DNA of 64,000 nt. Origin: Eledone cirrhosa. Taxonomy: Eukaryota. The notes beneath the pieces are model-generated. The model was not told where the DNA came from and ran no database searches. It saw nothing but the letters and a program-made list of their open reading frames with translations. The stretch is from assembly GCA_964016885.1 (NCBI GenBank), contig OZ024751.1, positions 31,000,001 to 31,064,000 of the forward strand, in the 5' to 3' direction. A program made the position numbers and the translations under genes. Shown piece after piece: positions 1,490 through 50,636 of this stretch (positions within the stretch are counted from its first letter, which is position 1; every line of letters begins with the position of its first letter).

Positions 1490-4400
1490 GTTGTTGCCCA
1501 GGAAGATTGTAAGATTGTTGACCATGGGAAAAAAAGTCCCATAGCTTACATCACATTTCCCTGTGAAGATGCTTAGTAAGTATTTTATTTTATTACTTTA
1601 AATATTTGTTAACTTTACAAGAAAATAACTTCTACATCTCTGCTATTTTCTTAATAGAATGCCTTGCTTGATTGAATTCTCAATTTTATGAATGATTCTG
1701 CCATTTATATCACTCACTGACAAACCATATGCTATTGTAAATAACAATGTCCGTTCAATTATACATTATTTAATGATTAGGACAAAATACTAGCATTTGT
1801 TTTGGCTCTCTGTGTTCTGAGTTCAAATCCTGGTGAGGCCAACTTTGCCTTTCATCTTTTCAGGGTCGATAAAATAAAGTACCAGTCCAGGATGGTGGCT
1901 TGTTGGAGTTCTTAGTGTGTCAGATGGAATGCCTTGTAGTATTTGTTCTGGTCCTTTACATTCTCTGGCATACTTGGGTGGTAAACAGAATCTATTACCC
2001 AGTTTAACACCACCACCTGGTCTTTTGGTGGTAAATTTACTTTATTGCCCAGTTTAACACCACCACCTGGTCTTTTGGTGGTAAATTTACTTTATTGCCC
2101 AGTTTAACACCACCATCTGGTCTTTTGGGTACCTTTAGCAAAGTCCACTCTGTTACAAACATTCAACCCAGGTCTCTAGTTGGAAGATACCTTCCTCCCA
2201 CCTGATCTGATAAAAAAAAGTACCAGTCAAGTACTGGGGTCAATTCTCTTTCCCTCTCTCTTTCTTCTTCTCTGAAAGAAATCAGCTCTGTTCAGACCTG
2301 GAGAGGGAATGGGCTCCACCAGGTTTACAATACCCAAGACACGCTGTAAGTCTCTACAGTGCCCCCTACGACTCCATCAGGAGATACGGCTCTATATGTG
2401 TAAAAGTTATGGTTTGGTTTTATTTCCAGTGATATTATTCGCTCGGAAGCTAACATCATGCCATTTAATACAGAACACAAGAAGAACTACATAAAAAAAG
2501 GTAAGACAAGGCCTTGCTTTACAATCCTATAATGTCTGACATTTTGTTGGCTCTGCATTATAACAATTATTGTTTGATTTTAGTGTTGATCAACATTGCA
2601 CCCAGTACACTCTGTAAAGTGGTTGGTAGTAGGAAAAGCATCTAGCTGTAGAAAATCCGCCAAACAAAGGGTTGGGAAGACTTTTCAGTTGTGCTATGAT
2701 AAAATTCACTCGCCACGGGATCTTTATGTCGGACCCCCAGTCTACCTGGAGGTCAGTCGCTCTGTTTGAGTACTGACTGGTTTGTGACGACATGTCCAAT
2801 CCTCCTTGCTAGTGATGACATATCCAGCCTTTGTTAGTATTGACCAGTCTGTGACATGTCCAATACTTATTATTGACCAGTCAGTGACATTTCAAACTCT
2901 TGTTAGTTTTGACCAGTCTGTGACATGGCCAACTCTTATTAGTATTGACCAGTCTCTGATGACATGTCCAGCCCTTGTTAGTATTGACCAGTCTGTGATG
3001 ACATGTCCAACTCTTGTTAGTATTGACCAGTCTGTGATGACATGTCCAACTCTTGTTAGTATTGACCAGTCTCTGATGACATGTTCAATCCTTGCTAGCA
3101 GTGAAAAGTGATGAAGCAAGCTACCAACAATAGAGTATTGATATTTCCAGGGAACTTATCTTTCCCGAAAGCTATGAGAAACCAGAGTCCAGCATCAGGT
3201 ATATAAATCCTTATGATTATGAAATAAGATTTAATGAGAAGTCATATCTTATCTCCTCAGTCTTATGACACGTTTACTACTTCACTGTTATATGACAACT
3301 GTTTTAGGTTATTTTCTTTTTAATCTAGGAGGATTTGTGCTGAGATCTTCACTCTAACACAACCCTTCATAATTTGTGCTATTAGAACTTCCCCCACCTC
3401 CATGGTGCCTCTATATAGCTAGGTTAAAGTCACCTAGGCTGTTCTGTAAATCACCAACACAACTGAAAAGTCCTCGTCCCTTCACAAGAGAAATTGTTAC
3501 AACAAATTATTCCTTGATTTTACTATGCTTCTCCTGTTTACAAGGATAAAGTATACAACTATGTTATGTTGTGGTCCTTTCTGACTGTTAAAAGGACCTA
3601 ACAAATACAGTACCAGTAATACGTGACACACCACTCACTCATCGTTTGATGCCAACTATTATTATCAACAAGGTTATTTCCTTATCTCATGTCTACTCTA
3701 AAACCTCCTATTAACATGGTTAATAAAAGAAAAATAGTTTGTTTTTTCAATATTTATATTGTTTATAATTTTTTTAATCTATTATGAAATTCTTTGTATT
3801 GTCATCATTCATCTTTTCCAGGTGAAAATCTACCGAATGATTTGAGTGAAAGATTCATAATGGCTCTAAAATGTGCTCAAAAAGCTGCTAAGGAGAACTT
3901 TGATACTACAAAGAAAAGTTCCCCAGTTAAGAATCCAAGTGACTCTATATTTAATAGTTCCTTCAACAGTAATTCTTCTATTGTTGCTCGCAGTTCACAG
4001 AACCAAGCAGATGTACATCATGAGAATCTAGTCGCTTCATCTGTAGCCAGCAGCACTATTACTAGTTACACAAACGAGAGCAGTGACCACATGAAGTATA
4101 CTTGTAGCCAGTGTAACTTTTCTACCTGTCGGCTAAATTTGATGTTGATTCACTATAAGCCGGAAGAAAATGTCCTCCGCTGTCCTAGTCTGCCTGATTC
4201 TATTGTGAATAACGCCGACAACCGCAAGCGCCGAATGCTGGAAAATGATGCTTATCTGAGGAGTCAACACTACAAGGCTCCTCGTCGCATGAACACCCCA
4301 GAAGTGGCCAGCCGTGTTCCTTGCTATGCCCGCAAACCATCGTCACCTCCTCCCCAGAAGGCTTTACCTGCCACGCCTCACGACAGAGGAAGTTGTTATA

Positions 4401-7400
4401 TGTTCCATGATGAACCCATTCGACAGCCAGCACACAAACCCAGCTTTTCATACCGGTCACTTCAGAAAAAAAAAGACAACTCCAGTGCGGGGGGAGACAG
4501 CGATACCTCAAAACGCAGTATTAGTTCTTTTACACAACCAAAGACATACACAAAACTGAAGTCATCAAAAGAGCAAAGAAATGGTGTGCTGTCTGTTGGC
4601 ACTGTTGACAAAAGAAAAGAGCTTCAGGCAAAGCCAAATAATGATAATATTTCTCTATCGGAAGATACTTTAGAGAAGTCTAACAGTAAAACTTACTCAA
4701 GTAGTGAAAGAAAATCTAATGGGGGAAAAGATGAGATGGAAGAGGAATCACCAAGGAAGAAAGTTCCTGCTTCTGAAAAGTAATGTTGGAATTGGACATT
4801 TTTCAGTCTTTCTCTTTTATTGATTATTTTCCATTTATCTATCAAAATAACTATCTGTCTATATATCTAGCCATCTATCTGTCTGTCTATTTACCTAGCT
4901 ATCCATTTGTCTGTATATCTATCGAACCATCTATCTATCTATTTATCTGTCTATCTATCTATCTCTATTTATCTGTCTGTTTGTCAATCTATCTATCTTT
5001 CTGTCTATTTATCTATCTATTTATCTCTGTTTATCTATCTGTCTGTCAGTCTATCCATCTCTATCTATCTAGCAGCCTATCTATCCCTACGTATTTATCT
5101 GTCTCTCTCTCTTGATCTATCCATCTCTGACTATCTTTATACATCCTATTTACCTATCTATTTCCATCTGGTGTATTTTAACAATGTAACATAGAATTCA
5201 TGAAATATGAAATGTTTACCAAGTCTTTATTGAGTATGTGTAATAGGTTTGACATTATCGAAGTAATCCTTGTTCGAACTGGCTGTAACTGGCCACTCAT
5301 ACCAACGTTAAGGTATTGTTCTCAAAATAAGTAACATCAAAATCTCATAGATTCGATATTATGTGTGATAATTATGTAAGGTAAAGCCTTTACCATGAAA
5401 ATATAATAGTAAATATAGAGTAATGTAATTGTTATGTGAGATAATTATGTAAGGTAAAGCCTTTACCATGAAAATATAATAGTAAATATAGAGTAATGTA
5501 ATTGTTATGTGAGATAATTATGTAAGGTAAAGCCTTTACCATGAAAATATAATAGTAAATATAGAGTAATGTAATTGTTATGTGAGATAATTATGTAAGG
5601 TAAAGCCTTTACCATGAAAATATAATAGTAAATATAGAGTAATGTAATTGTTATGCGAGATAATTATGTAAGGTAAAGCCTTTACCATGAAAATATAATA
5701 GTAAATATAGAGTAATGTAATTGTTAAAGGGTTAAATGATGTTCAAAGACACTGCTACCTTTATTATCACTAGATGAGAACAACATCGTCTTCTTCCACT
5801 CTCACACACACACACACTCTAAATCATGACGTTCGTTTACTCTATCTATGTACATCTCTTTGGCACTCCCCCTACCTCTATATATAGAAGAGGGCAAAGT
5901 CATAACTTTCTCTCTATCTCCCTCTTTCTGTCACCTCAAAAACACAGCGTTCCCTTTTCTCTCTCTATCTATGTGCATACCTCTCACTTAGCACTCCCCC
6001 TCTCTATATAAAGTGAGTGTGACGGACAGACAGCATTCTTATTATAATATAGACTAGCTGGACCCGTGAAAAAATTCATGGATAATTTTTTAAAATTTAA
6101 ATATTGTCCAATGAATATTTATCAGTTAATCAAAGTTGTTTGATTTGCAGTATTTTGGTGAATAAACAATTATATTTTCCTTTATTTTATGTATAATAAT
6201 GTAAGTTTATTTAAAATTAATTTCATAAAAGTGCACATAAAAAACATCCTTTAAAGCACTTCCCTATATACAATGTTTCTAGTAAAGGTGATTCCTCTTC
6301 TGTGGCCATGGGTGGATTGGTTTTGGGGTATCACTTTAACTCTCCCACTGTCCATCACCCTTGCTCAAACACTGCTCTTCAATTATGGCATTTTTTCACT
6401 GTTCAACTCTGTTTCTCATATTCTCTAGATACATTACTATGTAATTACTGAAAGCGTGACACACACGGTTGGGCGTACGGTACGTAGGTATAAGTGTATT
6501 AATATATAGATTATTATTATTGGTGGTTTGGCAGTATAGGTAGAGCGTCAGACACCATGATTTGCAGCATAGAGTTATGGCTCTTTATGTTCAACCCCTA
6601 AGGTTAGCTTTGCCCTTCATCCTTATAAATAAAGCACTTGGGTAATTGCTGGCCTTGTGCCAAAAGTAGAAACATTATTATTATAAGTAGTAGTAGTAGT
6701 AGTAGTATTACTGGATTTGGCAGAACTGTTTGAATGTTGGACAAAAAGGCTTTGTGGTATTTATTTGTTTTGGTTTTTTACATTCTGAGTTGAAACCCAA
6801 CCTAAGTCAACTTTGCCCTTCGTCCTTCTGGGGTTGATGAAATAGAAGTGAGTTGCGATGTCACTGGTTGTCAAGCTGTATTGGTCATTACCTTTCCCTT
6901 GAACAACATCGGTGGCGTGGATAGAGGAGGCTGGTATGTATGGGTTACTGCTGGTCTTCCACAAACAACTTTGCCCAGACTTGTGCCTGAGGGGAGGCTG
7001 GTATGTATGGGTTACTGCTGGTCTTCCACAAACAACTTTGCCCAGACTTGTGCCTGAGAGGGGAACTTTCTAGGTTCAAATCCCAGGTCATTCATAACCG
7101 AAGGGGGTCTTTACCCTATATATATCCCTTACCTTCTCTCATGCCCCTTCCCTCTCTCATATGTCACTTTTTCAATCCACCATTACCACAGGTCAAACAC
7201 AGATTCCAACCAAGAGAACAAGTCTGGTTCTTCTGATGAGAGTTCCTTTGGTACTGATGATGAAGCCACTGACTCAATCCCTTCCACAAAATCTGGTAAA
7301 TATCACACATCCACATTTTATTCTTTATCCTTAACCCTTTAACATTTAAACTGGCCATATCTGGCCAGAACTCTCTTATCTCTTTCTTTTCAAACCAATC

Positions 7401-10630: not shown

Positions 10631-12529
10631 CTTATGGGCTTCCACACAGTTTGCATCTACTAAATGTAACACAAAGGCATTAGTCAACTAAAGTACCACA
10701 CAATGGGACAACTAGTAAGGGAACAAAAGAATAATTACTGGGGTCAATGTAATCAATTAAATCGCTTCAAGACAGTGCCCCAGCATGGCCACACTGACTG
10801 AAACCAGTGAAGAAATAAAAAAAAAAACCCTATATTTATTTTTATTGTTTATTTGTTTCAGAAAAAGGGAGAAGAAAGTGAGTTTAAAGAAAAATTTATG
10901 ATGGCTGTAAAAAGAGTAAACGAGTTTTTGAAGAAAGGTGATTGTGAAATAACCAGTGACAACACAGATCAATATATTTACAAATCCAGTTGTAGTTCGC
11001 CTGACCCTTCTCAATATGATAAAACAGATGCAGAAAACAGTTTGACGTCTGAGCCATCATGGTACCCAGTGGACAATGTGAATATTGTTGAAGATAGACA
11101 AACTGTTGAAATGGTTTCTAGGTCAGTATTTTACAGAGCATATATTGTTGTTGCTGTTTGGGTCGTTCAGGGATAGAAAGGATTAAGAGCTGGTGATCTA
11201 CACAATAAAAGCACCCAGTACATACTGTAAAGTGGTTGGTGTAGAAAGCTTGCCAAACTGGGTTAGCAGGATCCTTCAGTTTGTGTCAAAAGACTCAACA
11301 ACTTCTCTGCACTTGATAATAACTATACATAATCAGGGTACATACCTCGTTGGCCTGTCTGGGACATCAATGGCCCAACTTCAGTACTGACTTGGTCTAT
11401 GTAGATCCACCCAACCCTTGCAAGGAAAGCAGACGTTAACTGATGATATATATCAATTCCAGAGTCAGGCGCGATCAATACCTTAAGCTGATCGATCACA
11501 AAACCCATTTTAAAAGGTTTTTGTTTTGTTAAAATCTTCCTGCATAATTTGACATAAAAACCTTTTGTTAAGTTACGTTAGAAATACTATTTTAATAATG
11601 AAATAATTGATCATTTTAGTAAATCCTGGCAAATTCTTCATTAATTAACTTAGATATGATGTATGTCATTAGAAATTCAGTAACGAAAGGGTTAATATGA
11701 TAATACTAGGAATAACAGCAGGAAACGGAGGTAGTAAGAACTCTCTCTGATGTCTTATAATACCTGATGTGTCTATTTTATAATTTTCTGTTTGTCTCTA
11801 AGTGTTCTTGTGGATACCGCTGAAGATGTATGCCAAACTGTCTTAGAGCTGGATAATTCAGAACCATCCAAAGTAAGTTTTTTTTCTTTGCTCATCTCAC
11901 ATAATAGAATTTTTATTTTTTTTTTTATTTTTATTTTAGTTTTGAAATAAAATAATCAGACAAAGATTTATTTTGGCATGCAGTACTATAATAATTGTTT
12001 CTACTTTTGACACAAGGCCAGCAATTATCCCAGTGCATTACTGGTGCTTTATTTTATCGACCCCCGTAAGGATGAAAAGCAAGTTAACCTGGGTGGAATT
12101 TGAACTAAGACCGTAAAGAGCCGTGACTCTACACTGCATAGCATGGCGTCCGACTCTCTACCGATACTGCCAATCCTCTATACAGTGCTATATAATGTAC
12201 CAGGAGAATGGCCCGGCGTTGCTCGGGATTTGCTCTAGGGTTCTTATATATTTGATATATATTTATCCTTCTCGAGCCTCGTGAAGTAATGTTTATATTT
12301 TGTTATTGTGTATGCAAAAATATCTGTACACGAATATATAAATAACAGTACAGAGAAGTATGAAATACCTCGGCCTCGGGTTAGTGTCTACATTTTGTCC
12401 TTATAAAAAAAGTTTGCCGTACATTACCAGGGTTTTTTTCCGTTTGAAGAAAATCAATACTTTATCGCGAAATAAATACCTTTTGTTTATATGTGTATGC
12501 AAAAATATCTGTACACGAATATATAATTA

Positions 12530-28767: not shown

Positions 28768-31700
28768 TTAAGTTGACACAGGCTGTCTCTTGTTAATTTC
28801 TGTTGGGGACCCTAGTTGATTTTCTTTATATAGCTGGTGACCTGTTTTGGTGTTTCCTTCAAACTTAAACAAGCCCTTGTTAGTTTCCATTAAGAGAATT
28901 GGACACATAGGTATTTCTTTGGGTGTGTATTCATTTCTGTACATTGTGCTACTATCTAAAGGAGCTGCTTCTGTCCTTTCATTCTTTGGTTTGAAGCTTT
29001 TTGTCTGTGGCATTGGATGCTCAATATAGTTTGCTTTGTGAGTCGAAATTCCTTTGAATGGCACATTGGATGGGGTATAGGAACTCTTTCTGGTAATTCT
29101 GACTGGACTAACATCAAATCGTTTGAAGTCTAAAGAGTAGCTGGTTTTACTATCAATGCTTCCTGACTGCCTGTGGCCTGTAGCTGGTCGAAAGGGAGTT
29201 GTTCGCTGGATTGGAAACTCCTTGTAAGTAAGTTTGTGTATAGTGTCATGTTCCATCTTTCCAGGAGGTTTCACATACTCACTCGGCTGGTGAAAACTAC
29301 GTTTCTCTGTTGGCCATTCACGAAAGTCATTTTTGAATGTTGTCATTCCTGGGAATGGCTCTTGTGAACACATCGGAACAATATTTGGTTTATAGCTGTG
29401 TGTGCGTGGAGCTGATTGACCTTGGAAGTCTTGTCTGAATGTAGTTAAACCATCTATAGGTACAGTTGGAAGGTTATATGTCTGTTTTTCCTTCAAAACC
29501 TTCGGTGGGAGTGAATACTCAACATAATCTTCTCTGTAGCCAGTTTTGTCTTCCAGTGGCATTTCTGATAAATTATTCACACTTTCTGGTTTCATACTCT
29601 TTCTTGGTGGTTCATAATTGTATTTAAAATCTCGAGTGAATGTTGACTGAGTAGTCAATTTCTCTGTTGGTGGAGTCCAACTTGACACTGGGGCATACGT
29701 TCTGGATGTGGAATGATCCCACTTCTTGTAATCAGCTAAAAAAAAAATATCAAAATATGTCCATATTATTACCTTTTTTTAACATTGTCAAAATTTGTTT
29801 ACATACAAACACTCTATGTTTTTGTCCTGTACTATCAAAATGATGTAAACCCTTTGTGGTTAATAAAGAAATAATTTTTATTATTAATAATAATAATAAA
29901 GAATGAATTATTATTATTGTTACTAGTAAAAACTCATTACTTTGCTGCCAAAATACACACAAACAACCAGAAAAATAACTATGCATTATCTATATATATA
30001 AAACTGAGGATGTCTGTCTGTGAGTTTGAATCCCTAAAACTCGAGAACCACCCAACCGACTGTTTTCAAACTTTACACATGTAATACTTATGTTTCAGGG
30101 TGTGTTCTGAGCAAAACAAATTTCAAATTTTCAATTCCCTAGGGACCGCATTAGGCGATTTAGCGATCTCTCTCTCTATAATTCTTAGTCTTTCTTTTTT
30201 TAGATAGATACATACATATAACGTCGCGCCCTTATAATATCTGTCTGTATGTCTGCATTACGTCCTTCCCTGAGGATGTCTGTGTGTGTGTGTGTGTGTG
30301 TGTGAGTTTGAATCCCTAAAACTCGAGAAGTACCCAACCGACTTTTTTCAAACTTTACATGTGTATTACTTATGTTTCAGAGAGTGTTATGCACATAAAA
30401 AATTCAACTTTTTGATCCCTTAGGTGAAAAACTGCGTTTTTTTCAGCTTTTTAGAGTTGTTTTGAGGCGTTACGTCAGACCGATTTCCTTTAAATCCTAA
30501 CTATGTATTAGTCAGTCTCTTCTTCATACTGTGAGCAAAGAAAATCCAACTTTTTATGTCTAGGGCCTGCATTAGGTGAAAAACCTCATTTTTTCAGCTT
30601 TTTAGGGCTTTTTTGAGGCGTTACGTCTAGCCGATTTTCACGAAATTTCAAGGCATATTATGCACATAAAAAATTCATTAAAGATTATCCAGCCATCAGA
30701 GTATTCGGTTTATTTTCTTTACATATTGTCCAGGCATGCAGTTTTTCCACGATTAGGTCTGTTGGCGGCCCGCGTTCCAAAATAGCTTATCCCGTGCAAT
30801 GCCGGGTACCACTGCTAGTATATATATATATATCACTGTGAAGACAGTGTGTGAAAGATAGATAGTTTAAAGTGTAATTCAACAATATGGTGACATAATA
30901 ATAACAAATTGACATATTTCAATATCTCTCTTTCTTTCACATTCTCTCTCAACAACATTTGTCATCACAGTCCATCATTATCATTCTGACGTCATAAACG
31001 ATCCTCTTCTCTTTCATACACACACTCTCTCTCTCTTAACAACAGACAACAACAACTTTTCACTCCTTCTCTTTTCCCCCTCCTACATATATGCTGTGAC
31101 AGACAGACAGATGGCGAAACAGCTTCTCTTTTATAATATAGATTATTATTATTTTTAATATCAATTATCATCGTCAGCATCATAGTCATTTAACGTCTGC
31201 ATTTTATCACACCACCAACACCAAGAAATATGTTATGACCTTGGCATAGCTGACAAGTCTTCTTGGCCCTTTGTTTGGTAGATTTTCTATGGCTGGATGT
31301 CCTTCCTATCACCAACCACTTTACAGTGTGTACTGTGTGTTTTAACATGGTACCAACACTAAGGAAGTTCTCATATCCTTGCCATAGCTGAAGAGTCTTC
31401 CTGGCCCTTTTTTTGGCAGGTTTTCTACAGTTGGATGCCCTTCCTATCGCCAATCACTTTACAGAAGTGTATTGGCTGATTGTTGTTATTATTGATTTTA
31501 ATGTTTAGTAATAAAGAAATAATTATTAAAAATTAAGAAAGAAATATTTGTAATGCTTAGTTTAGGCTTTACCTCACATGATAATATCAAATCTATGAGA
31601 TTTTGGTGTTATTTATTTTGAGAACAATACCTTAACATAAGTATGAGCAGCTGGTTTGAACAGAAAGAGGTGAGAGAATTCTGACCAGATACAGCTGGTT

Positions 31701-32769
31701 TCAATGCTAAAGGGTTAAATATGGTGACACTAACAACTTCTTACCTCTGTATGTTGGTTCACCAACAAATTTTCCCAGATTAACAGAAAGTGTATTATGT
31801 CGTATAGGTTGAGCTGGAGCAGACTGTCTCCCTGAACAGAAAGAAAAATACATCTATGTTGAAGAAGGTGTAGTTGAGAGACATGTTTAAATACTGAGGG
31901 GTGTCACAGCTAAGACAACAGATCACACACTGGCATAGAAACCAAGGGTTCAATGGTTTGTGTATGCATAAACCATATCGAGATACAATATATATATATA
32001 TATATATATATAAGTAGCAAACGAGCCAGTCATTGCCGGCACACCATTCACCACTGTAAATAAAGACCCTCCCCTCCCTCATTCCTCAACATTGTGGTTT
32101 TCAAATGGCCCCAGACCATGCTTTAGGGGAGAGCAAGATTTAAACTATATGTTGACATGCTCCGGGAGCTAAACAACCTATGTATCAAATTTGAACGAAA
32201 TCGGATGGAAACTGTGGAAATGTATAGACTGCATACACAGACAGATGTTTAGCTCTGATTTATCTGAATTATTGAGCCCTCTGCCGCTCATATCGAATTT
32301 TGTTTATCGTGAACTCGTGCGCCGATTTTTCGATACTCGATTATTCTACTATATATATATATATATATATATATTAAAATATAAGTATTAATAAAATAGA
32401 TGTTCATTTGATCAATTACATTTTATTATACATATTTCGGATGTACAACAGTACGTCCTCATCAGACAAAATATAATGATACATGACATACCCTGAGATG
32501 TTAAATGGTTAATCACTACCTTGATTAAATCTTAACCATTTAACATCTCAGGGTATGTCATGTATCATTATATTTTGTCTGATGAGGACGTACTGTTGTA
32601 CATCCGAAATATGTATAATAAAATGTAATTGATCAAATGAACATCTATTTTATTAATATTTATATTTTAATATTAATAACTCCTGAAAATTATTTTCCAT
32701 TGAGTGCTTCCAATCTACTGTAAAACTCATTGTTTGACATAATCATCGAATATTGTTTAACAACTTAAT

Positions 32770-32806
<37 letters not shown>

Positions 32807-32993
32807 AGCAGGGACAAGGTATAAATATAACTTCATTATGTTTATTCACACAAAATGCACATTTCACGATCAATCAAAATTCGGGTCCGGCTACTTTGAG
32901 CGTCAAAGTAGCCGGACCCGAATTTTAGCATTGAGTGGTCAAACTGGTGAACCATCAGTAACTAAACATTACACACTAATACACTATATATAT

Positions 32994-33043
<50 letters not shown>

Positions 33044-34594
33044 ATGTATATATTATATATATATGTGTATGTATATATTATATATATATGTGTATGTATA
33101 TCATCATCATCATCATCATCATCATCAGGTTTAGCGTCCGTGTTCCACGCTTGCATGGGTTTGGACGGGGGTTTTCCCACTTGAGGCAAGAGTGGTTGTC
33201 TTGCTCGCATAGGACTGTCTGGCGGGTTTTCTACAGTTGGATGCCCTTCCTAACACCAACCACATTTACAGTGTGGGGCTGGGAGGTTTTTACCGTATAT
33301 ATTATATATATATTTTACCGTATATATTATATATATATGTGTATGTATATATTATATATATATGTGTATGTATATATTATATATATATGTGTATGTATAT
33401 ATTATATGATATATATGTATATATTATATGATATATATGTATGTATATATTATATGATATATATGTATGTATGTATGTATATATTATAGTATATATATAT
33501 GTATGTATGTATATATTATAGTATATATGTATGTATATATTATAGTATGTATGTATGTATGTATATATTATAGTATATATGTATGTATGTATATATTATA
33601 TGATATATATATGTATGTATGTATATATTATATGATATATATATATATACAGGGTGCGGACGATATTTGTTCGCAAGATTACTGTCTAGGAAAAAATAAC
33701 ACAGTAGTTTTATTTTTTAAGATATATTTATCAAACTTGGGTCAGTTTGTCTCCATGACTTGTTCTTTCGATCTCACTCGATAAACCCACCATTGGCTTT
33801 GATAACGGCTTCAAGGCGGCCTCGGAACCGGCTACAGGCCTTCGTTACTGTCCCCCGACTTAGGCCCCTAAGTCACTTGTGATCCTGGCCTTCAGATCGT
33901 TTTTCGTATTGCAGCTAGATCTGTTGGTGTCTCGTTCCACTGCGCCCCACACAAAGAAGTCGGGGTTGCAGTCAGGAGAGCTGGGAGGCCAGATGTCAGG
34001 TGAAGTGTGGTCGACAAAGTTCTGTGACAGCCAGATTTGGGTCGTTCGGCTGGTATGACAGGGCGCTGAGTCTTGCTGCCACACGTACGGCCTACCTGCA
34101 ACTACCTGGTCGATCCAGGGCTTTACTACCTCACTCAGAACGCGGATGTAGCCATCGGTGTTCAGCTTGAGGCCCTCAGGGAAGAAGTGAGGTGGCATGA
34201 CATAACCTTGACTGCTGACGACACCTAAGACCAATGTTGTCGCTGGAAACTTTGTCTGCATGACTCTGGGCACGTCTTTGGATGAGACAGCGAGCCACCT
34301 GTTGTTCTGGGAGTTGATCTTCGGGTCCTTATTTGTCCTCCTGGCGCAGATTCCAAGAAGAACTCTGTGTCTCTTCCACAAATTTTGAGGTTCAAAATTA
34401 TTCATAATCAATTATTCTGAAAATAAATAATGGAAATATAGTCACTGTTTTTATGAAGACAAGAGTGACAACGGAAGTAAAAAAAAATTTGCATAAAATT
34501 AGCAGTTGAAAATTGCGAACAAATATCGTCCTCACCCTGTATGTATGTATATATTATATGATATATATATATATATGTATGTATTTATTATATG

Positions 34595-34626
<32 letters not shown>

Positions 34627-37600
34627 CATCATTATCATCGTCGCTAGCATCATCTTCCACGCTAGTATTGGTTTAGACGGGAATTGTCCCACGTGAGGCA
34701 AGATTGGTAGTCTTGCTCGCATAGGACTGTCTGGCGGGTTTTCTACGGCTGGATGCCCTTCCTAACACCAACCACATTTACAGTGTGGACTGGGAGGTTT
34801 TTACCGTGTTATCTACGCGGCCACATTACAGCGTGGACTGTGTGTTTTTTTTCTTGTGACACCTACACGACCTCATTTATTTAGGACTGAATGTTGTGGC
34901 ACCAACATAACTTTACAGAGAAAGGGGTGGTGTAGATAGGGTGGGGGTAGGGGTAGTGGAATGGGGGTGTATTTTTTGTTAGAAGGTGCGTACTGACTGT
35001 ACGTTTCGCTTTGTACTTAGGCAAGGCGGGTCTTCTGTATTACTGTGTAGCGCCAAAGATCTCAGTCCAGTGACATTGTCTTGGAGAGGTGTAAGTGTGT
35101 AAGGTCAGAATTTATCAAATCGTCCCAAGTTTTTCTGGGCTGCCTACCCTTTCATTTTTAGGGAGAAACCTTTAGCTCTCTGCACTTTTTCCCTCCCGTT
35201 CTGACTCTAGCTACTGTATTTTCAGAGCACCCTCCACCACTGCTGATTTTGTCACCCAGGTAACGGAAGGTGTTCACTATTTCTATAGAACCATCTGGGC
35301 AATGGAAGGAGCTAGTATCCTGTGGGCACTTGCTACTACTTATTGCACCTGAGCACCGGCCACATATAAAATCTATGTTCTTAGTTAGTTTACCTGTGAT
35401 CCCACTACATATTTTATGTACTCATACTTTGCATTTGGGACATAAAATGGAGTTTCTGCCTACACACTGAGCATGGCCATTTCCCAGAGGGGACCAGTGC
35501 CCTATTTTCCTTCCTACATACTAGAACTTTAGTCTTAGACAAGTTAATTTTAAAACCTTTTGATTCTAGGCCATGCTTCCAAGTTTGCAATTTCTTCTCT
35601 AGTTCAGCCATTGATTCAGCTATGAGCGTTAGATCATCTGCATATAGGAGTTCCCATGGGCAGCCGGTCTTGAACTCCTCTGTTATAGCCTGAAGGGCAA
35701 TAATAAATAGGAGGGGGATAAGGACAGAGCCCTGATGAACACCGACTTTTACGCTAAATTCTTCACTATATTCGTTGTTAATTCTAACCTTGCTGACTGT
35801 TTCTTTATACATAGCTTGTATAGCTTTCACGAGCCATTCATCAACACCTAGTTTTATAAGAGCCCACCAGATAATGAAGCGGGGAAGTCAACAAAAGCTA
35901 AATATAGGGGTTTACTTTTAACTATGTACTTCTCCTGTAGTTGTCGTACAAGGAAAAGAGCATCTGTGGTACTTTTACCTGACACAAACGCAAACTGCAT
36001 TTCATCTAGATCAATATGATATGAAGGCGCATGGCTTAGTAGTTAGAGCAGTAGGCTTGCAATCGAAAGGTTGTGTGTTCAATTCTCGGACGGGGTGATG
36101 TGTTGTTTCCTTGAGCAAGACACTTTATTTCACATTGCTCCAGTTTACTCAGCTGAAAATGAGTACCAACAATAGCTGGAGGTTTAACCCTGCGATGGAC
36201 TGGCGTCCTGTCCAGGGGAGAGTTTTGTACTCTCAGTCACTTCAGGCCATGAAACCGGGATAAGCACCGGCCAAATGAGCCTTCTGGCTTAAGACAGATT
36301 TTAGACTTATGGCCTGCCCGCCCAGCCAGTGGGATGGCGTCATCTTATGGCTAAAACAGCACATGCTGTGACCAGTGGCGCCGAAGGTACCCGACAGACT
36401 GGTCGGTCAAGGTGGTCAAGGTGATATTATATGATATTGGCAGTATCGGTAGAGGGTCGGACGCCATGCTTTGCAGCATAGAGTTACGGCCCTTTATGGT
36501 CTGAGTTCAAATCCCTCCGACGTTAATTTTGCCTTTCATCCTTACGGGGTTGATAAAATAAAGTACCAGTAATGTACTGGGTAATTGCTGGCCTTGTGCC
36601 AAAAGTAGAAACAATTATATTATATATATATATCAATATAATATATATATTTATGTATATATTATATAATTGTTTCTACTTTTGGCACAAGGCCAGCAAT
36701 TACCCAGTGCATTACTGGTACTTTATTTTATCAACCCCGTAAGGATGAAAGGCAAAATTAACGTCGGAGGGATTTGAACTCAGACCATAAAGGGCCGTAA
36801 CTCTATGCGTCAAAGCATGGTGTCCGACCCTCTACCGATACTGCCAATCCACCGTATATATTATATAATATATATATGTATGTATATATTATATATATCA
36901 TCATACATCTGCTTTTCCCTGCTTGCAAGGGTGGGACGGGTCTTATTAAGCACGGCATCTCTCCATAGGAAGATCAAAGAAAACACGTGAAAAAGCTCAT
37001 AAGAGAGACGATTAAGGTGCAGGATTGATAAGACATCACCTTAAGTAATTAAAATTTGATATTAATTAATATTCTCTACCTGTAAAATTTGACTTATAGC
37101 AAGTAACATTATCCATTGTTCCTGGTGGCTTTTTCCAAACCTCTGGAGGTCGAACCCATGGCTTTTCAAGCTGGTGTGGCTGATAATCTTCTCTACAGGA
37201 AATAATTAAAATGGTCAAAGGTAAAAATTGAAAATTTTAGTCCCACCTGTCCCATATTTTGACTCCTTCTATTCCAAATTTTAACGCTACTTGTCCCACA
37301 TTTTAACCCTACCTTATCACATTTTCACTCCATCTACCCCAATTTTAACCCCACTTGCACAAATTTTATTCCCAACTGACCTAAATTTTAACCATATCTA
37401 CCTACATTTATCCCCACCTGTCCCAAATTTTAACCCCATCTGCCCCACCATCATCATCAACAGCTGTTGCAGCATTAAATGTCCATTTTCCCCTGCTAGC
37501 AAGTAAGTGTTGAATAGGTCATACATTTTGTTTGGAAAGTTTTCTACAGTTGGATGTCCTTCCTATCACCAACCATTATATATTTCTAGAGAAGGCACAT

Positions 37601-39794
37601 GGCTTAATGGTTAGAGTGTTGGGCTCACAATCATGAAGTTGTGAGTTCAATTCCCAGACCAGGCAATGCCTTGTGTCCTTGAGGAAGACACTTTATTTCA
37701 CATTGCTCATGGAGCTCAGCTTTAGAAATGAGCTGTGAAGTCACATATAGTGTCTATAAAGTGTGTATATAGCTGCAATGTCACTAATGCCAAGCTACAT
37801 TGGCCTTTGTTTATAGTGTATATATACTGTATATACAGTGTGTATATATACTGTATATACAGTGTGTATATATACTGTATATACAGTGTGTATATATACT
37901 GTATATACAGTGTGTATATAGTCACGACGTCTCTTGTGCCAAGCTGTATCGGCCTGCTGGTCTTCCATAAAAACACATTGCCCAGGCTTGAGTTTTGGAT
38001 GGGAATTTCCAAGGGAAAAAAACAATGGACATTCATGAAGTGAGGGGGGGTATCTAGGTAATTCCTAATCTAATAAACTGTCTTTAAATTTCAACATTGA
38101 TGATGTATATATATATAAATGATATATAATGCATATATTTTATATAATGTATATATAACATTGATAATGAATATATAATATATATAATTGTTTCTACTTT
38201 GGGCACAAGGCCAGCAATTACCCAGTGCATTACTGGTACTTTATTTTATCAACCCCGTAAGGATGAAAGGCAAAGTCAACCTCGGCGGGATTTGAACTCA
38301 GACCATAAAGGGACGTAACTATGCTGGAAAGCATGGCGTCCGACCCTCTACTGATACTGCCAATTCACCATGGTATATAATGTATATACAACATTGATAA
38401 TGTATACATAATATATATAATGTATAACATTGATTATATATAAATATATAGTACATAATCATGATTCTTCAGTGATTACAACTCTAATTAGAGTTATTGT
38501 AATTATGAACCATAACATTTAAATCATGATACCTTTGTATAGTTTTCTTCTCCATTATCCCATCTGGCAGTGCAGTATGCTTTGGACGAAATGATTCAAT
38601 TTTACTAAGTTCATGTTCTTTATACTTGGCACCATATTCTGTTATTTGCTCTCTTTTTTCTCCTGGTTTTTTCATGAAATTGCTGTCCTGGTGTTTGCAA
38701 TAATGTCGCCTGCATGCAAAAACAAAACAAAAAAAGAATAGAAGTCATCGTGGGAACTTCTATCAGTCGCGTAGGTAGGGGCATCGAGCCCCCACCCTCG
38801 ATAAACACTTTTATGAGGGTGGTACTTTTGGGGCTGTTGTGTAAGCCTGGTACACAAACTAGTTAATATATATATATAAATAAATGTAACCTGAGTTTTT
38901 CAAATATTAATAATAATATTTGATTCGTTTGCAATTATGCAAACGGCCTCTTTAAGCCATGTCAGTAGAATGACACTGTCATTCTTGCTCTTGTGTTGGC
39001 ATATAAACAGAACAGCAGACACTGATGTTTCTGGGTGATTACCCTTCATCAGTACCATATACTGCTTACCTCCCAACTGTCAGAATGAGTGAAAATATAT
39101 ATTTTTTTTAAATATACAGTGACTGATCAGCCTGATTTGCATATTAGCAGACCCCCTGATCAACCAGATTTGCATATCAGTAGATAGGCCAGCCAGTTTC
39201 ATATATACAAGTGATTAATGGCCAACTTTGCCATATTCAAATAACTAAGAAATAGTTTTATCACTCTATATAACTGAATACAATAAATGTAATCTAAGTT
39301 TTTCGAATATTAATAATAATATTCGATTCATTTGCAATTATGCAAACAGCCTCTTTAAGCCATGTCAGTAGAATAACCCTGCCATTCTTGCTCTTGTGTT
39401 AGCACTCCAAGCCATGTCTTTCTACTGACATGGCCTAAAGAGGCTGTTTGCATATTTGCAAATGAATTGAATATTATTAATATACGAAAAATTCAGATTA
39501 CATTTATTGTATTCAGCCATGTAGAGCAATAAAACTATTTGATAGTTATATATATATATATATCATCATCACCGTTTCACACCCATTTTTCCAAGCTAGC
39601 ATGGGTTAGACGGGTTGTCCTGTTGTGGGCAATGCCAGGTCAGGTGACCAGAGAGAGAGAAGGGGAGAGAGGTGTATAATTAGCACTGCAGTTAGGATTA
39701 TACCTATCTCTATACCTACTCTGCATCTCGTCATGCATTGAGTACTTCCATGATTTGTGGTCTCTTTTGTCTCAGCACTGCATACTCCCCCCCC

Positions 39795-39830
<36 letters not shown>

Positions 39831-41425
39831 GTATGTATATATATGAACTAGCCATTGAAACAGCAGGAGCTCAAAAAAGACAGTTACTTTAGTCCATCCC
39901 TATTTATTTTATTATACGTATTTCGAAGATGTATGGCTTGTGTATAACATAAGTTAAAATATGTTCTCTTCAGATAAAATCCACAGAACATGGAGATATC
40001 ATTTGATATACAGGCAGCAGACAAGCTATTCAGTTCAGTGGCCGGCAATCATACGCCTAGAAAAAACCTCCACACAGAAGATATTGTATGAGTGAGGGAA
40101 ATATTACAGTTGGCGTTGACGTTTTTGAACTGGCTAGGGTATGAGGTTACCGGATTAGTCAAACAGACAGATTTCTTTATTTGCCACAAGAGCGCACAAG
40201 AAAAGGGGACAATACAAAGACATGCCGGGCATTTTACATACAGTCGTGTAAAAAATATAAAACAAACAATTATAACAATCGAAATCCCCAATAGGGGGGA
40301 AGCGTCACAAATGGGTTGTTTAATAACCCGTCGATAGAACAACCTTCAACTTTAGGAGCGTGTTGTGCAAGTGGTCCTTTCTTCCTTTTGCTCTCTTCTT
40401 TAACCTACAGGCTTATAAACAGAGAAGGCCCAATCACAAAAGAAAACAAGTATGGATTGTTAGTCTATTTATTTATCACTTATGTTAGATGAAATTAGAT
40501 ACTATATCGAAATTTTAGATATTTATTCAAAGATGCTGAAGTTATAATGTAACTATATATTAAAGAAAATTTAAATTACTAATTTCATAGTCAATTTATG
40601 TTTGTTTATATTTACAATTGTATTTTAGTAGATACTAGCAGAATGGCCCGGCGTTGCTAGGGATTTGCTCTAGGGTTCTTATATATTTGATATATATTTA
40701 TCCTTATCGAGCCTCGTGAAATAAATACGTTTGTTTATATTTTGTTATTGTGTATGCAAAAATATCTGTACACGAATATATCATTTTATATATGTATATA
40801 TATAATTATATATTCGTGTACAGATATTTTTGCATACACAATAACAAAATATAAATAGTTTTATTACATTTTGAAGAGTTTTTTTCGGAATGTTTTTTAA
40901 CTGCTGTTTCCTGTAAACAGACATTCGTCTCATTCTGACGTCACCAGCCATGTCTCTCCATGTGCGTTTATTTTCATAATTACGCATGAGGCGAATTAGC
41001 CTGCTTTTAAATTCCCTTTTTGGCAATTTCTAACAGTGATATAAGGGTTATCGTGTTTGAGCTCTACTGATGAACGACTCCAACCGTGACCATCCCCACT
41101 GAAAGTTTCGTGAAATAGTATTAAGACTATATAGAGCAATTTCTATACTTTCATTTATATATAAACATATATATAACAGATTAAAGTTTAAGCAAATAAT
41201 CACTGCTTTCACCCTTAACGGGATCTGAAACTAAAAAAAATCAATCTGTGGACGCAGAAGGAAATATTTCGAAAAACGTTACACACACTATATATATATA
41301 TATATATGTGAATATAGACATAGAATATTCGAAAATATTCTGTATGTTTATAATAAACATTTTGAAGACCTAATCGCTAATGTCTATATTCACATATATA
41401 TCGCTATTTCAGAGCATTTATTCCA

Positions 41426-41464
<39 letters not shown>

Positions 41465-44400
41465 ATATACATATATATATATACACACACACACACAGCT
41501 ACGTCATAATGTCGTAATGCAGACAACCAGGCATAGAGACAGATATTATAAAGGCGCAACGTTATATCTATGTATTTATCTAAAAAGAGAAAGACTAAGA
41601 GAAACAGAGAGAGATCGCCTAATGCGTTCTCTGGGGCATTGAAAATTTGAAATTTTGTTTGCTCAAAACACTCACAGGACCATAAGTATTACATGTGTAA
41701 AGTTTGAAAACAATCGGTTGGGTGGTTCTCGAGTTTTAGTAATTGGACAGACAGACAGACATTCTCTGTTTTAGATATATAGATTATGAGAAAATATTTA
41801 ACAATTGGCGCAACTATTTTTTTTGAATTGGCTAGGGAATCATATTACCGGAAATAATATCACATTACAAATATAATGTCTAAGCCGTGTATAAAAATAT
41901 AATAATGATAAAGGAAAGAAAAAAGAGGTGGGGGAGGGGCAATTCACCACCAAGTGCGACAATCGGCCGCACCTTACGCGAGGGGTTAACTACACACTTT
42001 GAGGCAAGCCAACATTACCACGAGTGATGGCGAGGCTAAGGTGTTGAAATAACAAGGCACCTTCACGGGCATCACCTGACATCTCAGTAAGGTGAGCCGC
42101 CAGTGATGACAAGAACTTCACTGTCAGCGGCCCAACTCCATGGCAAGATAAAAGACAATGTTGGCTTCCGCGGGATTTTAACTCAGAACCTAGAAACGCC
42201 TAAGTAAATACAGCAAATCATTTTGTCCGACGCTCTACTGATTCTGCCAATCCATCGCTGTTTTTCTAAATTAATTAATGGTTTCTGATTTAGGCACAAG
42301 GTCAGCAATTTGCAGGGAAGGGGAAAGTCGATTCCAGTGTGTTACTGGTACTTTATTTTATCGACCCCCTAATGATGGAAGGCAAAGCTAACTTCCGCGG
42401 GATTTGAACTCAGAACCTAAAGGAACCTATATGCCACAATGCATGTTGTCCGACGCTCTATCGATTACTGCCAATCCACCGCCTTTTTTTCTAAATTAAT
42501 TAATAAAATCATTTGTTCATTTGTCACTCAGGTTGGAAAGAAAACTCATTAAGTTCTTAATTAATCATTACTGACAACCACTTTAGTTAATAGTGTCAGC
42601 AGTCAACATCAAGCTTGATTTCCTTATATAAACAAACGTCAACGTTCTCTCTCTCACACATATATTCTCTATCTCCTTTCTCTTTCCTTTGTATCTCCGG
42701 TTCACTCTATAACCATTTCTTTATTAGCGGGATTGAAACAAACTTGTTTTTTTTTTATTTTAGGTTTTAGATATAAAAATATATGGCAGCATATTAGAAA
42801 TAAGACACGAAGAATAGAAAAAAAATGACTTTATATATCTTAGGCCCATGACGTTTATTCGTTTTTACCTCCTTAAATACACAAGAATTGGGTTAACATT
42901 GCATTGTAAGGGCGGGTTCAGTTCGAAGGGAGCTTGTCGCTGTGTTTTAAGAGGCATTCACAGCATAAATTCATTAAATTATCTTTGACTAGGAACAGAA
43001 ACCTGCTCAACTTGACAATCCTTAAATATTCTCGGAATAAAGGGTTTGTCACATTGACCCCCCAACTTTGAGAGCGATTGAGATAATAGGCAACTCATCA
43101 GAACTGAGTAAGACCCCAATGTTGGTTATAGGTAAAACATCAACCCAATCTCCAGAAAGTATAAATCTTTAAGTAGGGTCATTTGGTATCTGATAAGAGT
43201 AATTAATTAGACTCATATCAAGATAGAAATGATCCTCTTCTGTGTATCGAGCATCACTTGGTATCGATGCCTCCCAGATGGGCATCAATACAATAAGCGA
43301 TAGTTAAACTTGAGCGGGTGGTTGGTTCACTCCTTCTCGAGTCTTGACTTAAAAATGTTGACTGAGAGTGCGTCAACTGTTTTTTGTTTGAAGTTGTTCC
43401 AGTGGTTGATTGTACGCGCAGAAAATAAATGGCTCCTAGGACTTGGTTGGTGATGCACCAGGTGCTTCCACTGAGTCACAATCACCATAAAAATTTGAGT
43501 TGACACAAAGTTATTAGTCGGATTAATCAAAGAGGGAATGAAGAATAATTGAATTACGAAAAAGTAAAATATATACTGGGGGGGGGGGGGGGAATAAGTC
43601 GACCACCAGAAATGAAAAGGTGCAGTGACATCACATTGGTGGAAAGGATCAACCGAGGACCACTTTCATGGAGATTTCGAAGGGTCAGACTGTTTCCAAG
43701 GGCCTCAGCTAAAGTTGAGTATTATTTTGGGTTACGCAAGGAATTAGAGAGACAGCCAACAAAGAACACATAAGGTAAGCCATTTTGTGTTTTCTACCAC
43801 TTTTGCAATCTTAATTTCTTAGAGGGAAAGAAAGCTCCATCGCATCTTGTGGTATACGATTGAGGGTGCAGCTCTTCTCTTCACTTTTTCTTCTTCTTTT
43901 TTAGTACTGTATACACACACATATATATATATTATATATATATGTAACTAACCAAAAAATTGTCATCAATATACGAGCCTTTGACATAAGTTAAATTGTG
44001 TTATGTATAAATATATTGCATGTAATATTTACAAATTTACCCGTTTAATGTGTGTAGTAGGCTGTAGGGATTATTTTCTATTTCATTGACCAAGAATATG
44101 CCTGGTACCTTAGAGCAAAGAAAGGCAAAACCGACTGCGGCAAAATTTCAAGAGACCAAGAAGACGAAACATAATTCTAACAAAACACTTAGTGGGACAT
44201 TCTATCATTTCTGGCGCTCCGTCATCTGGATTGTGAACGATATTTAACAATAGATTTAAAAAAAAGTATTTGGTAATACAACGAATTAAATCTTTATTAA
44301 TTACCGATACTGTAGCATAACTAGAGTGCGTGCTAAGCAGGGCCGCCTTTCAATGTGTTGTGAGGGGCCGCCCTTTCAGTGTGCCGACCGGGAAAGCTCA

Positions 44401-45025
44401 TTTCAATGTCGACAGAGGAAGCCCCCTTCAGGGTGTCAACCGAGACAACCCTTCAGCCCCCCCCCCCCCCCACACACACACACCAGATACTTGAATATAT
44501 ATACAACATACTCAAAAGTGTTGCTTACCCCCTCATCACCACCACCTTACTACACAACAAACTATATTAGTAGAAGTTCCATCTATCATGCATTGTTTCC
44601 TGGCTGATGTTAATGTGTACATATCAATCTGTGAATATGTATTTATTGTTAGAATGTATGTGTGGAGAATTCCTGCGAGTGTGTTTGCTGGTTTTACCTC
44701 AACAATTATTAGGGAGGAAACTCTGGTAAATTGTATGTATTCTATTGAAATATGTGCCAAAAATGAAAACAAAAAAGAATACAAATATGCTATATTTAAA
44801 AAGCAAAGCCCCAAGCTTTATCTATTAAACATATATAAGATATATTATATATAATCAACTTCCACCTGTAACTACCTAAACACATTGAGCTTTATATAAA
44901 ACTATACACATAAATATATATAATAATTGTTTCTACTTTAAGCACAAGGCCGCCCCTACTGAAAAATAAATCTAAGTTGTGACTTACCCACACGTACATA
45001 TGTTACATATACACTTCAGCGTCAT
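28768..45025 (-). CDS. SAXO: Stabilizer of axonemal microtubules (SAXO1/SAXO2, FAM154 family), complete, 460 aa
   Basis: Exons 45025-44988 (MTLKCICNICTCG), 38709-38533 (RHYCKH...TIQR), 37192-37080, 31831-31745, 29735-28768 (TAA); all phases agree, 1383 nt. N-terminal CICxICxCGRHxCxH motif and repeated T-x-[YF]-x-x-D-[YF] Mn-type motifs (STFTRDF, TGYREDY, TTFRQDF, TTFKNDF, TSYSLDF) are typical of SAXO proteins. Candidate AATAAA on - strand at 28718-28713. The SAXO1 vs SAXO2 paralog cannot be assigned by eye. Confidence 0.92.
29989..30818 (+). mobile_element. Non-autonomous Helitron
   Basis: A|TCTATATATATAAAAC start; 3' hairpin CCCGTGCAATGCCGGG then CTAG|T; no TSD; internal duplication of the 5' block at ~30270. 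Confidence 0.85.
32415..32477 (-). ncRNA. Type I minimal hammerhead ribozyme motif (left arm of palindrome 2; sense to SAXO pre-mRNA)
   Basis: Reverse-complement copy of 32567-32629, in SAXO intron 3. Confidence 0.82.
32567..32629 (+). ncRNA. Type I minimal hammerhead ribozyme motif (right arm of palindrome 2)
   Basis: 12-bp stem I ATTATATTTTGT/ATAAAATGTAAT (2 G-U); CTGATGA 32579-85; stem II GGA-c-GTAC-tgtt-GTAC-a-TCC; GAAA 32606-09; stem III TATGTA; predicted cleavage after A32617. Confidence 0.85.
33650..34539 (-). mobile_element. Internally deleted Tc1/mariner (DD37D/maT-like) element
   Basis: 27-bp TIR CAGGGTGCGGACGATATTTGTTCGCAA, TA flanks; transposase remnants WQQDSAPCH...WPPSSPDCNP(L)DFFVWG. 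Confidence 0.9.
34626..36016 (-). mobile_element. RTE-clade LINE fragment including 3' UTR
   Basis: VGVHQGSVLIPLLF, CPWELLYADDL, GFKINLSKTKVL, GKWPCSVC; contiguous with a 3' UTR carrying the ~41-bp repeat motif and an (ATG)n-like tail. Confidence 0.88.
36025..36300 (+). mobile_element. tRNA-derived CORE-like SINE (family B)
   Basis: GGCGCATGGCTTAGTAGTTAGAGC...GTTCAATTC...CCTTGAGCAAGACACTTTATTTCACATTGCTCC; another copy at 37592-37740. Confidence 0.8.
36437..36849. mobile_element. Two family-A SINEs tail-to-tail (inverted pair)
   Basis: 36437-36620 (+) and 36665-36849 (-) are nearly identical reverse complements separated by ~45 nt of AT. Confidence 0.88.
37815..37920. repeat. 24-bp tandem repeat (~4 copies) inside a SINE
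   Basis: Unit GTGTATATATACTGTATATACAGT contains the palindrome ACTGTATATACAGT. Confidence 0.9.
38879..39549. repeat. Direct + inverted repeat block
   Basis: 38879-39002 is a direct repeat of ~39283-39403; 39242-39373 is inverted at 39420-39549. Confidence 0.8.
39012..39058 (-). ncRNA. Possible hammerhead ribozyme variant
   Basis: Minus strand ATGGTA-CTGATGA-a-GGGT-aatc-ACCC-a-GAAACA-tcag-TGTC-TGCTGT; GUC cleavage triplet, but A.A mismatch at the base of stem II and a wobble-rich stem I. Confidence 0.45.
39906..39980 (-). ncRNA. Type I minimal hammerhead ribozyme motif, solo, in SAXO intron 1 (sense)
   Basis: Minus strand: ATTTTAT-CTGAAGA-GAA...(internal hairpin AACATA/TATGTT)...TTC-GAAA-TACGTA-TA-ATAAAAT; perfect 7-bp stem I and palindromic stem III. 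Confidence 0.72.
40635..41783 (-). mobile_element. Non-autonomous Helitron
   Basis: Minus strand starts A|TCTATATATCTAAAACAGAGAATGTCTGTC and ends with hairpin CCCTAGCAACGCCGGG + CTAG|T; internal palindrome at ~40735-40857. A 5' fragment of the family lies at 51760-51905. Confidence 0.82.
43230..43445 (-). mobile_element. CR1/L2-like LINE 3' end fragment
   Basis: RSHLFSARTINHWNNFKQKTVDALSVNIFKSRLEKE* matches the F(F)S.R....WN.L....V.A.S...FK.RL C-terminal pattern; followed by a short hairpin. Confidence 0.65.
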
Positions 45026-49746: not shown

Positions 49747-50636
49747 TGGGTGGGGACGATATTTGTTCGCAATTTTCAACTGCTAATTTTATGCAAAATT
49801 TTTTTTACTTCCGTTGTCACTCTTGTCTTCATAAAAACAGTGACTATATTTCCATTATTTATTTTCAGAATAATTGATTATGAATAATTTTGAACCTCCA
49901 AATTTGTGGAAGAGACACGGAGTTCTTCTTGGAATCCGTGCCGGGAGGACAAATAAGACCAGAAGATCAACTCCCAGAACAGCAGGTGGCTCGCTGTCTC
50001 ATCCAAAGACGTGCCCAGAGTCATGCAGACAAAGTTTCCAGCGACAACATTGGTCTTAGGTGTCGTCAGCAGTCAAGGTGATGTCATGCCACCTCACTTC
50101 TTCCCTGAGGGCCTCGAGCTGAACACCGATGGCTACATCCGCGTTCTGAGCGAGGTAGTAAAGCCCTGGATCGACCAGGTAGCTGCAGGTAGACCGTACG
50201 TGTGGCAGCAAGACTCAGCGCCCTGCCATACCAGCCAAAAGACCCAAGCCTGGCTGTCACAGAACTTTGTCGACCACACTTCAACTGACATCTGGCCTCC
50301 CAGCTCGCCTGACTGCAACCCCCTCGACTTCTTTGTGTGGGGCGCAGTGGAACGAGACACCAACAGATCTAGCTGCAATACGAAAGATGATCTGTAATAC
50401 GATCACAAGAGCCTTTAGGGGCCTAAGTTGGGGGACAGTGACGAAGGCCTGTAGCTGGTTCCGAGGCCGCCTTGAGGCCGTCATCAAAGCCAATGGCAGG
50501 TTTATCGAGTGAGATCGAAAGAACAAGTCATGGAGACAAACTGACCCAAGTTTGATAAATATATCTTAAAAAATAAAATTACTGTGTTATTTTTTCCTAG
50601 ACAGTAATCTTGCGAACAAATATCGTCCGCACCCTG
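49747..50636 (+). mobile_element. Internally deleted DD37D/maT-like mariner element, copy 2
   Basis: Same TIRs and same deletion junction as 33650-34539; 37 residues between the D of QQD and the D of NPLD. Confidence 0.9.

Follow-up and report, generated by a model that had tools for sequence, protein, structure and literature searches.

Antisense-first order of palindromic hammerhead ribozymes in Eledone cirrhosa as a probable by-product of head-to-head Penelope-like insertion

The palindrome that carries two opposed hammerhead motifs at positions 32371-32673 of the window (the whole 64,000-nt stretch of Eledone cirrhosa DNA analyzed here) is very probably a promoterless stub of a Penelope-like element, in which the order of antisense before sense would be a by-product of two reverse-transcription events and not an evolved lock. 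The earlier note had proposed a built-in lock, in which each ribozyme is transcribed after its own complement; head-to-head insertion yields this antisense-first order, and most copies of the family were found to be unlocked.

Results

An inverted-repeat scan of the window delimited the palindrome as two 142-bp arms (32371-32512 and 32532-32673) with one mismatch and a 19-nt spacer. The hammerhead core CTGATGA...GAAA lies on the plus strand at 32579-32609 in the right arm and on the minus strand at 32465-32435 in the left arm, and the previously described placement of the plus-strand ribozyme in the right arm and the minus-strand ribozyme in the left was confirmed for both palindromes of the window (cores at 32579/32465 and 19654/19513). 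The insertion extends beyond the palindrome, the right arm continuing for about 100 nt to about 32773, and as a whole (32371-32773) it consists of two Penelope-like 5' leaders head to head plus a tail, with no ORF in the stub itself. The left arm (32371-32512, minus strand) is the short-end copy and begins 16 nt downstream of the predicted start A, and its minus-strand sense is also the sense of the SAXO pre-mRNA. The right arm including the spacer (32513-32673, plus strand) retains the parent's predicted start A at 32515 with an initiator-like TCACT, and a TATA box is absent from it. The tail (32674-32773, plus strand), which belongs to one arm only, leads in full-length copies into the remaining 5' leader and then the ORF. 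The flanks are (TA)n target microsatellite, at 32350-32375 on the left, where the border blends into the arm end, and at 32774-32803 on the right, beyond the tail. Among the joints listed, none skipped the whole insertion as an empty-site allele would, and the only listed difference inside the arms in run X4, at position 32638, was common to the other three runs and was not A-to-G. A perfect 24-bp GC-rich hairpin with a 3-nt loop was also observed at 32876-32926, 100 nt to the right of the insertion and outside the Penelope stub.

The host is a SAXO1/2-like gene on the minus strand (28768-45025) with five coding exons (45025-44988, 38709-38533, 37192-37080, 31831-31745, and 29735-28768) bordered by GT-AG, encoding 460 amino acids with no internal stop. 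It was identified by Pfam PF05217 (E 3.8e-23), and its upstream exons were found by aligning a paralogue of this genome. In run X4, the kind of which is not on record, a single contig bridges 29735 to 31745 across predicted intron 4 and departs from the stretch at the exon 4 border. The palindrome at 32.4 kb lies within intron 3 (37079-31832, minus strand) and is the only one of the two in a SAXO intron. Intron 3 also contains an inverted repeat at 36436-36848 with 193-bp arms (five mismatches) and a TA-rich center, the arms of which are a SINE-like repeat recurring through the window; therefore, ribozyme-free long hairpins occur there too. Further inverted repeats with 60-bp arms were seen in intron 1 at 39314-39479 and 40734-40855. 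A SAXO paralogue elsewhere in the genome (L108, G000:C4:272500400-272502500) has a single uninterrupted 471-codon frame and is possibly a retrocopy of the spliced gene. Two related minus-strand fragments at 33860-34411 and 49957-50397, reading WQQDSAPCH and WPPSSPDCN, resemble what we take to be a Tc1/mariner transposase.

The second palindromic stub (19407-19849) belongs to another subfamily and is older, with 94% arm identity; its arms (approximately 19407-19578 and 19589-19760) differ by 10 mismatches and one gap in 172 columns, its right arm is tailed, and its cores lie at 19654 (plus strand) and 19513 (minus strand, CTGACGA). It sits 9 kb downstream of the SAXO stop codon (28768) and, therefore, outside any intron of the SAXO coding region. 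Two plus-strand pieces, 3788-4783 and 10811-11176, are likely exons of a plus-strand gene, an intron of which may hold the 19.5-kb palindrome; the first piece has no Pfam match.

The motif in the right arm of the 32.4-kb palindrome (32567-32629, plus strand) was recognized by motif and fold prediction as a type I hammerhead comprising a helix I of 12 bp, CUGAUGA at 32579-32585, a 7-bp helix II with a mismatch (32586-32605), GAAA at 32606-32609, and a 2-bp helix III with the self-complementary AUAUGUAU, and the predicted cut follows A32617 in the AUA triplet. The mirror motif (32415-32477, minus strand) has its predicted cut after A32427. The core and helices I to III thus occur in the order expected of a hammerhead in a pLTR. 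Helix II pairs vary between GC and AT over 11 divergent representatives, which were chosen for pairing, and the helix III loop segment is self-complementary in 62 of the 67 copies that match the pattern. No hammerhead family was returned at E≤10 by Rfam searches of 601 nt and 91 nt; the matches obtained were microRNA-like or due to chance. Further divergent type I hammerhead motifs, with a self-complementary or nearly self-complementary loop 3, were noted at L003:2737-2796, L025:596-640, L045:5375-5443, L070:9227-9299, and L072:5406-5473 and suggest several more PLE families in the genome.

Folding predictions were then consistent with the earlier expectation that read-through transcription traps the ribozyme in a hairpin. 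In the full palindrome, the hammerhead fold was predicted to be about 88 kcal/mol costlier than the hairpin, and the prediction has the hairpin already zipped (45 of 47 mirror pairs) by the time transcription reaches the core; read-through RNA is thus predicted to form a 142-bp hairpin and not to cleave. Even by itself, an arm is predicted to have almost no activity. Its helices I and II were predicted to form, with pair probabilities mostly 0.8-0.99, and the complete hammerhead fold including helix III had a predicted probability of about 2e-4. A lone arm would hardly cleave, because this hammerhead type likely needs a second copy for helix III; minimal hammerheads of this type are described as requiring a dimer, with no cleavage by the single minimal motif (PMC4209133, in the text available), and the requirement also appears in PMC6765202. 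Some monomer activity is nevertheless possible, because nearest-neighbor folding underrates hammerhead tertiary contacts and helix I is long.

The expectation that the trap operates from either side holds in that the antisense arm comes first on both strands, but this is automatic for any palindrome. A palindrome reads alike on both strands, and therefore each locus supplies only one bit of information, antisense-first or sense-first. In the 3.0-Gb genome, the 17-nt core had 9,798 exact matches (control, 0), and about a thousand similar palindromic insertions were found, with near-identical copies on many chromosomes. Antisense-first pairs numbered 229 at gaps of 69-99 nt, 593 at 100-130 nt, and 144 at 131-161 nt, so that 737 antisense-first pairs at gaps of 100-161 nt stand against 9 sense-first pairs at 100-200 nt. 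Four sense-first pairs were viewed: two join different subfamilies, one has arms abutting at (TA)n, and one is a true tail-to-tail copy; three of these four, therefore, look like separate insertions that meet at (TA)n. The prevalence of the antisense-first order is accounted for because head-to-head joining forces it. Dual hammerheads on opposite strands, 100-700 bp apart, have been noted in Schistosoma (PMC4209133).

Exact-core pairs at 69-161 nt comprise 1,932 of the 9,798 cores, approximately 20%, and the other 80% or so are without an exact close antisense partner. Because mutated partners are missed by an exact-core count, 10-kb loci, 79 in all, were examined for 91 cores among the first 100 of the list, the last eight being left out. 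No inverted copy was present within about 5 kb of 48 of the 91 sampled cores. A partial inverted copy accompanied 13, overlapping the ribozyme by a quarter or more in 8 of them, and a covering inverted copy was found within 300 nt for 14 (including two that were mis-binned by the script and moved by hand), 0.8-4.4 kb upstream for another 14, and 5.7 kb downstream for the remaining 2, which share one locus. Several unlocked copies keep a short inverted tail piece directly upstream. As judged from these sequences, the constant feature is the outward-facing ends, and coverage of the ribozyme depends on truncation. At one place (G000:C1:63697639-63697899), one antisense core precedes three sense cores with a spacing of 65 nt; this short direct tandem within an inverted stub could form an active dimer.

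The parent element was sought among copies with coding sequence. One of them (L035) is laid out as TATA, TCACT, hammerhead, tail, ATG, a frameshifted ORF, a 3' region, and the repeat again in direct orientation, and the right arm plus tail of the window corresponds to its 5' leader with an 89% match across 274 nt. RT motifs (GASDSAQ and GLYRDD) with downstream Y..G.T endonuclease-type motifs were found beside the repeat in L035, L037, and L042, and so the combination typical of EN+ PLEs, an ORF with RT plus a GIY-YIG at its C terminus linked to the repeat, is present as judged by motif; a Pfam search of three ORF pieces returned no RT or GIY-YIG family. The pLTR arrangement is direct in L035 and inverted in L031, L033, L036, and L039. 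The DKT motif, the CxCX5C linker, and the (TA)n targets of the Hydra clade were likewise found, with KSDKTN and CNCRNKTDC in L035 and short ends followed by (TA)6 or more in 36 of 45 cases. By eye, CCHH seemed to be absent from the frameshifted copies. The parent fits a Hydra-like Penelope element, the clade being called from motifs; the Neptune clade was considered and dropped in favor of Hydra on motifs. The two window copies are inverted and do not have the direct tandem hammerhead repeats that define a non-LTR retrozyme. In the full element, the hammerhead follows the initiator A by 64 nt, AT-rich points lie about 53 and 151 nt past the cut site, and the RT and GIY-YIG ORF comes after these two points. 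Two regions adjoin PLE copies, L038:1239-5093, presumably a Helitron-like helicase region, and L032:4552-9499, presumably an intact-looking non-LTR retrotransposon ORF that is open for 968 codons.

Stub anatomy was analyzed in 42 palindromes, namely 40 consecutive genomic ones (gap 100-130 nt, exact cores) and the two of the window, a choice that favors copies that are young and symmetric and caps the combined 5' reach of the two arms. Exactly one arm was tailed in 37 of the 42. Of the 3' ends, measured in 70 of the 84 arms, 34 fall at (TA)n 30-59 nt after the cut site and 32 at 140-159 nt. In the stubs, two leaders meet by their 5' ends within (TA)n, and each of the AT-rich points is the end of one of them. 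Copies with upstream body have a TATA box 30-33 nt before an initiator-like A, which precedes the core by 64 nt in 43 of 46 copies selected on the TATA-initiator motif, and the arrangement was also visible by eye in 42 of 45 copies chosen in another way; the initiator A is, from these motifs, the putative transcription start site. Arms ended within 2 nt downstream of this A in 30 of 84 cases, and a TATA box occurred in none of the 30 arms with an intact start. Genome-wide, pair counts drop (from 593 to 144) as the gap passes about twice 64 nt. The base before the start was G in 12, T in 5, and C in 4 of 21 cases, a hint of a cap-derived G that is confounded by the opposite arm and by indels. 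The copied RNA would have been uncut at the ribozyme, because each arm spans the predicted cut site.

In the route that we propose, an element protein would nick both strands of a (TA)n tract, each nick would prime a cDNA at one of two internal points of uncleaved element RNA, and both cDNAs would run toward the RNA 5' end and then join by microhomology. Since the target would anchor both 3' ends, the sense copy would always come second on either strand. The route has a precedent in vitro in PAc, for which both strands are cut and extended from two internal RT start sites, the RNA serving as principal template is uncleaved, and the ribozyme depended on protein (PMC11167929, in the text available). 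Head-to-head is also described as the commonest Penelope arrangement, together with a TATA/TCACT pLTR and a one-sided tail (PMC3846280).

It is unlikely that the inverted arm instead came from fold-back self-priming of a single cDNA or from an antisense template, a route in which the order would still be a by-product. Such a route would agree with the microhomology at the junctions, with the small palindromes at the center, and with the origin of both arms always from one subfamily, and Arkhipova et al. suggested that the head-to-head arrangement arises by self-priming on an antisense template (PMC3846280, in the text available). However, among the 37 one-tail palindromes, the 5' reach was greater for the short arm in 16 and for the tailed arm in 14, with 7 ties, as measured by an ungapped script that is noisy where arms carry indels. 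The longer reach of the short arm counts against fold-back because a folded-back copy cannot exceed its tailed cDNA template, and a copy of a short cDNA cannot gain a tail. Furthermore, at L025, the short-end arm has 1.3 kb of body, whereas the tailed arm is only a stub. The two arms are thus apparently truncated independently. A mixed template, consisting of two subfamily RNAs held by a hammerhead dimer, was also considered and was not supported; the 5 of 42 palindromes that were flagged proved to be mostly edge artifacts (4 viewed).

It might also be supposed that head-to-head insertion is self-disarming, the short product masking its ribozyme and being kept in introns, with about a thousand hairpin loci feeding editing and small-RNA silencing, which we consider distinctly doubtful. 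If it were true, silencing would target the element's own 5' leader, and unlocked sense copies would be purged from introns.

A plain selection filter acting on a mechanically produced geometry, the weakest form of the tolerance suggested in the earlier note, appears very improbable to us; under it, gene-sense hammerheads that are active and unlocked would cut pre-mRNAs and be lost from introns, leaving locked palindromes enriched there. In its favor, formation of the hairpin is predicted to do away with the ribozyme fold, SAXO intron 3 houses a young copy that is locked, and tandem retrozymes are reported as under-represented in Xenopus introns, where 42-44% nevertheless still reside (bioRxiv 10.64898/2026.07.22.740005, in the text available). 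However, a lone arm is not predicted to form helix III, single minimal hammerheads are described as inactive in vitro (PMC4209133), 48 of the 91 sampled cores are without an inverted copy, and the second locked copy, at 19.5 kb, lies outside SAXO. A third, divergent hammerhead core (CUGAAGA, AUA, loop AUACGUAU) was moreover observed in gene-sense orientation in SAXO intron 1 (39980-39906, minus strand), with no inverted partner in the window and with relatives at 74-78% in L070 and L095. This unlocked core is weak evidence against the filter, because it is old and predicted to fold poorly.

With its 142 bp, the hairpin could plausibly serve as a substrate of ADAR or Dicer, which counts in favor of a conditional switch, in which A-to-I editing, dsRNA processing, or central transcription would free the ribozyme to cut the SAXO pre-mRNA. 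When a quarter, half, or all of the 59 adenosines of the antisense arm were replaced by G or made unpairable, the predicted mean pairing of helices I and II stayed at or below 0.0005; thus, simulated editing did not free the ribozyme as had been suggested, and provided no input that turns the inactive fold active, as a regulatory switch would need. Likewise, the idea of transcripts starting near the center was weakened, because the stubs are without the parent's TATA box and, therefore, have no obvious central promoter. With helices I and II left unpaired in the editing model, no TATA box in the stub, a stub that is one of about a thousand interchangeable insertions, and a freed monomer still without a partner for helix III, a conditional switch is almost certainly not the explanation.

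Discussion

The reading of the palindrome as a lock matters little if it is, as we think very probable, an ordinary Penelope-like footprint. The thousands of young copies would constitute a natural data set that maps the RNA start and the two internal priming points within a few bases. They indicate that the copied RNA spanned an uncut ribozyme site, they favor two independently primed cDNAs over fold-back, and they would carry a model built in vitro on a Poseidon element over to a Hydra-like one. Combined with gene annotation, the copies could also show directly whether PLE hammerheads are costly inside introns. Among the openly available papers listed in literature searches, none was seen to propose an antisense lock for PLE hammerheads or to describe this family; the supplements of PMC8557442 may list related mollusc Hydra families.

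The sources are compared below as far as their available text goes. The motif shares a 1-2 bp helix III and a palindromic loop with the minimal type I hammerheads of PLEs and non-LTR retrozymes, which form dimers (Cervera and de la Pena 2014, PMC4209133). Retrozymes are direct tandems that can dimerize and circularize (PMC4209133), whereas an inverted stub, with one sense copy per strand, cannot.

The stubs resemble PAc, a Poseidon element of Anolis (Frangieh et al. 2024, PMC11167929), in the two internal RT starts that match genomic ends, in the use of both target strands, and in templates that are not cut by the ribozyme. The RT start points differ: those of PAc lie inside the ORF, whereas here they precede the ATG within the 5' leader, are separated by about 98 nt, and are TA-like.

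With the Hydra clade (Craig et al. 2021, PMC8557442), the family shares DKT, the CxCX5C linker, (TA)n insertion, the hammerhead, and, at the C terminus, a GIY-YIG-type domain that carries CxxC or CxH close to its end. L035 differs from it in having RWR instead of RWK and about 4.6 kb between repeats, in contrast to "generally <3 kb".

Finally, the insertions share with EN+ PLEs in general (Arkhipova et al. 2013, PMC3846280; Craig et al. 2021, PMC8557442) the head-to-head inverted 5'-truncated copy, the tail at one end, the TATA and TCACT initiator and hammerhead in the repeat, and the AT-rich targets. The tail is about 100 nt here, in contrast to 30-40 there, and the Eledone family is set apart by very many stubs that consist of two leaders only and by 5' ends that pile up at the predicted start.
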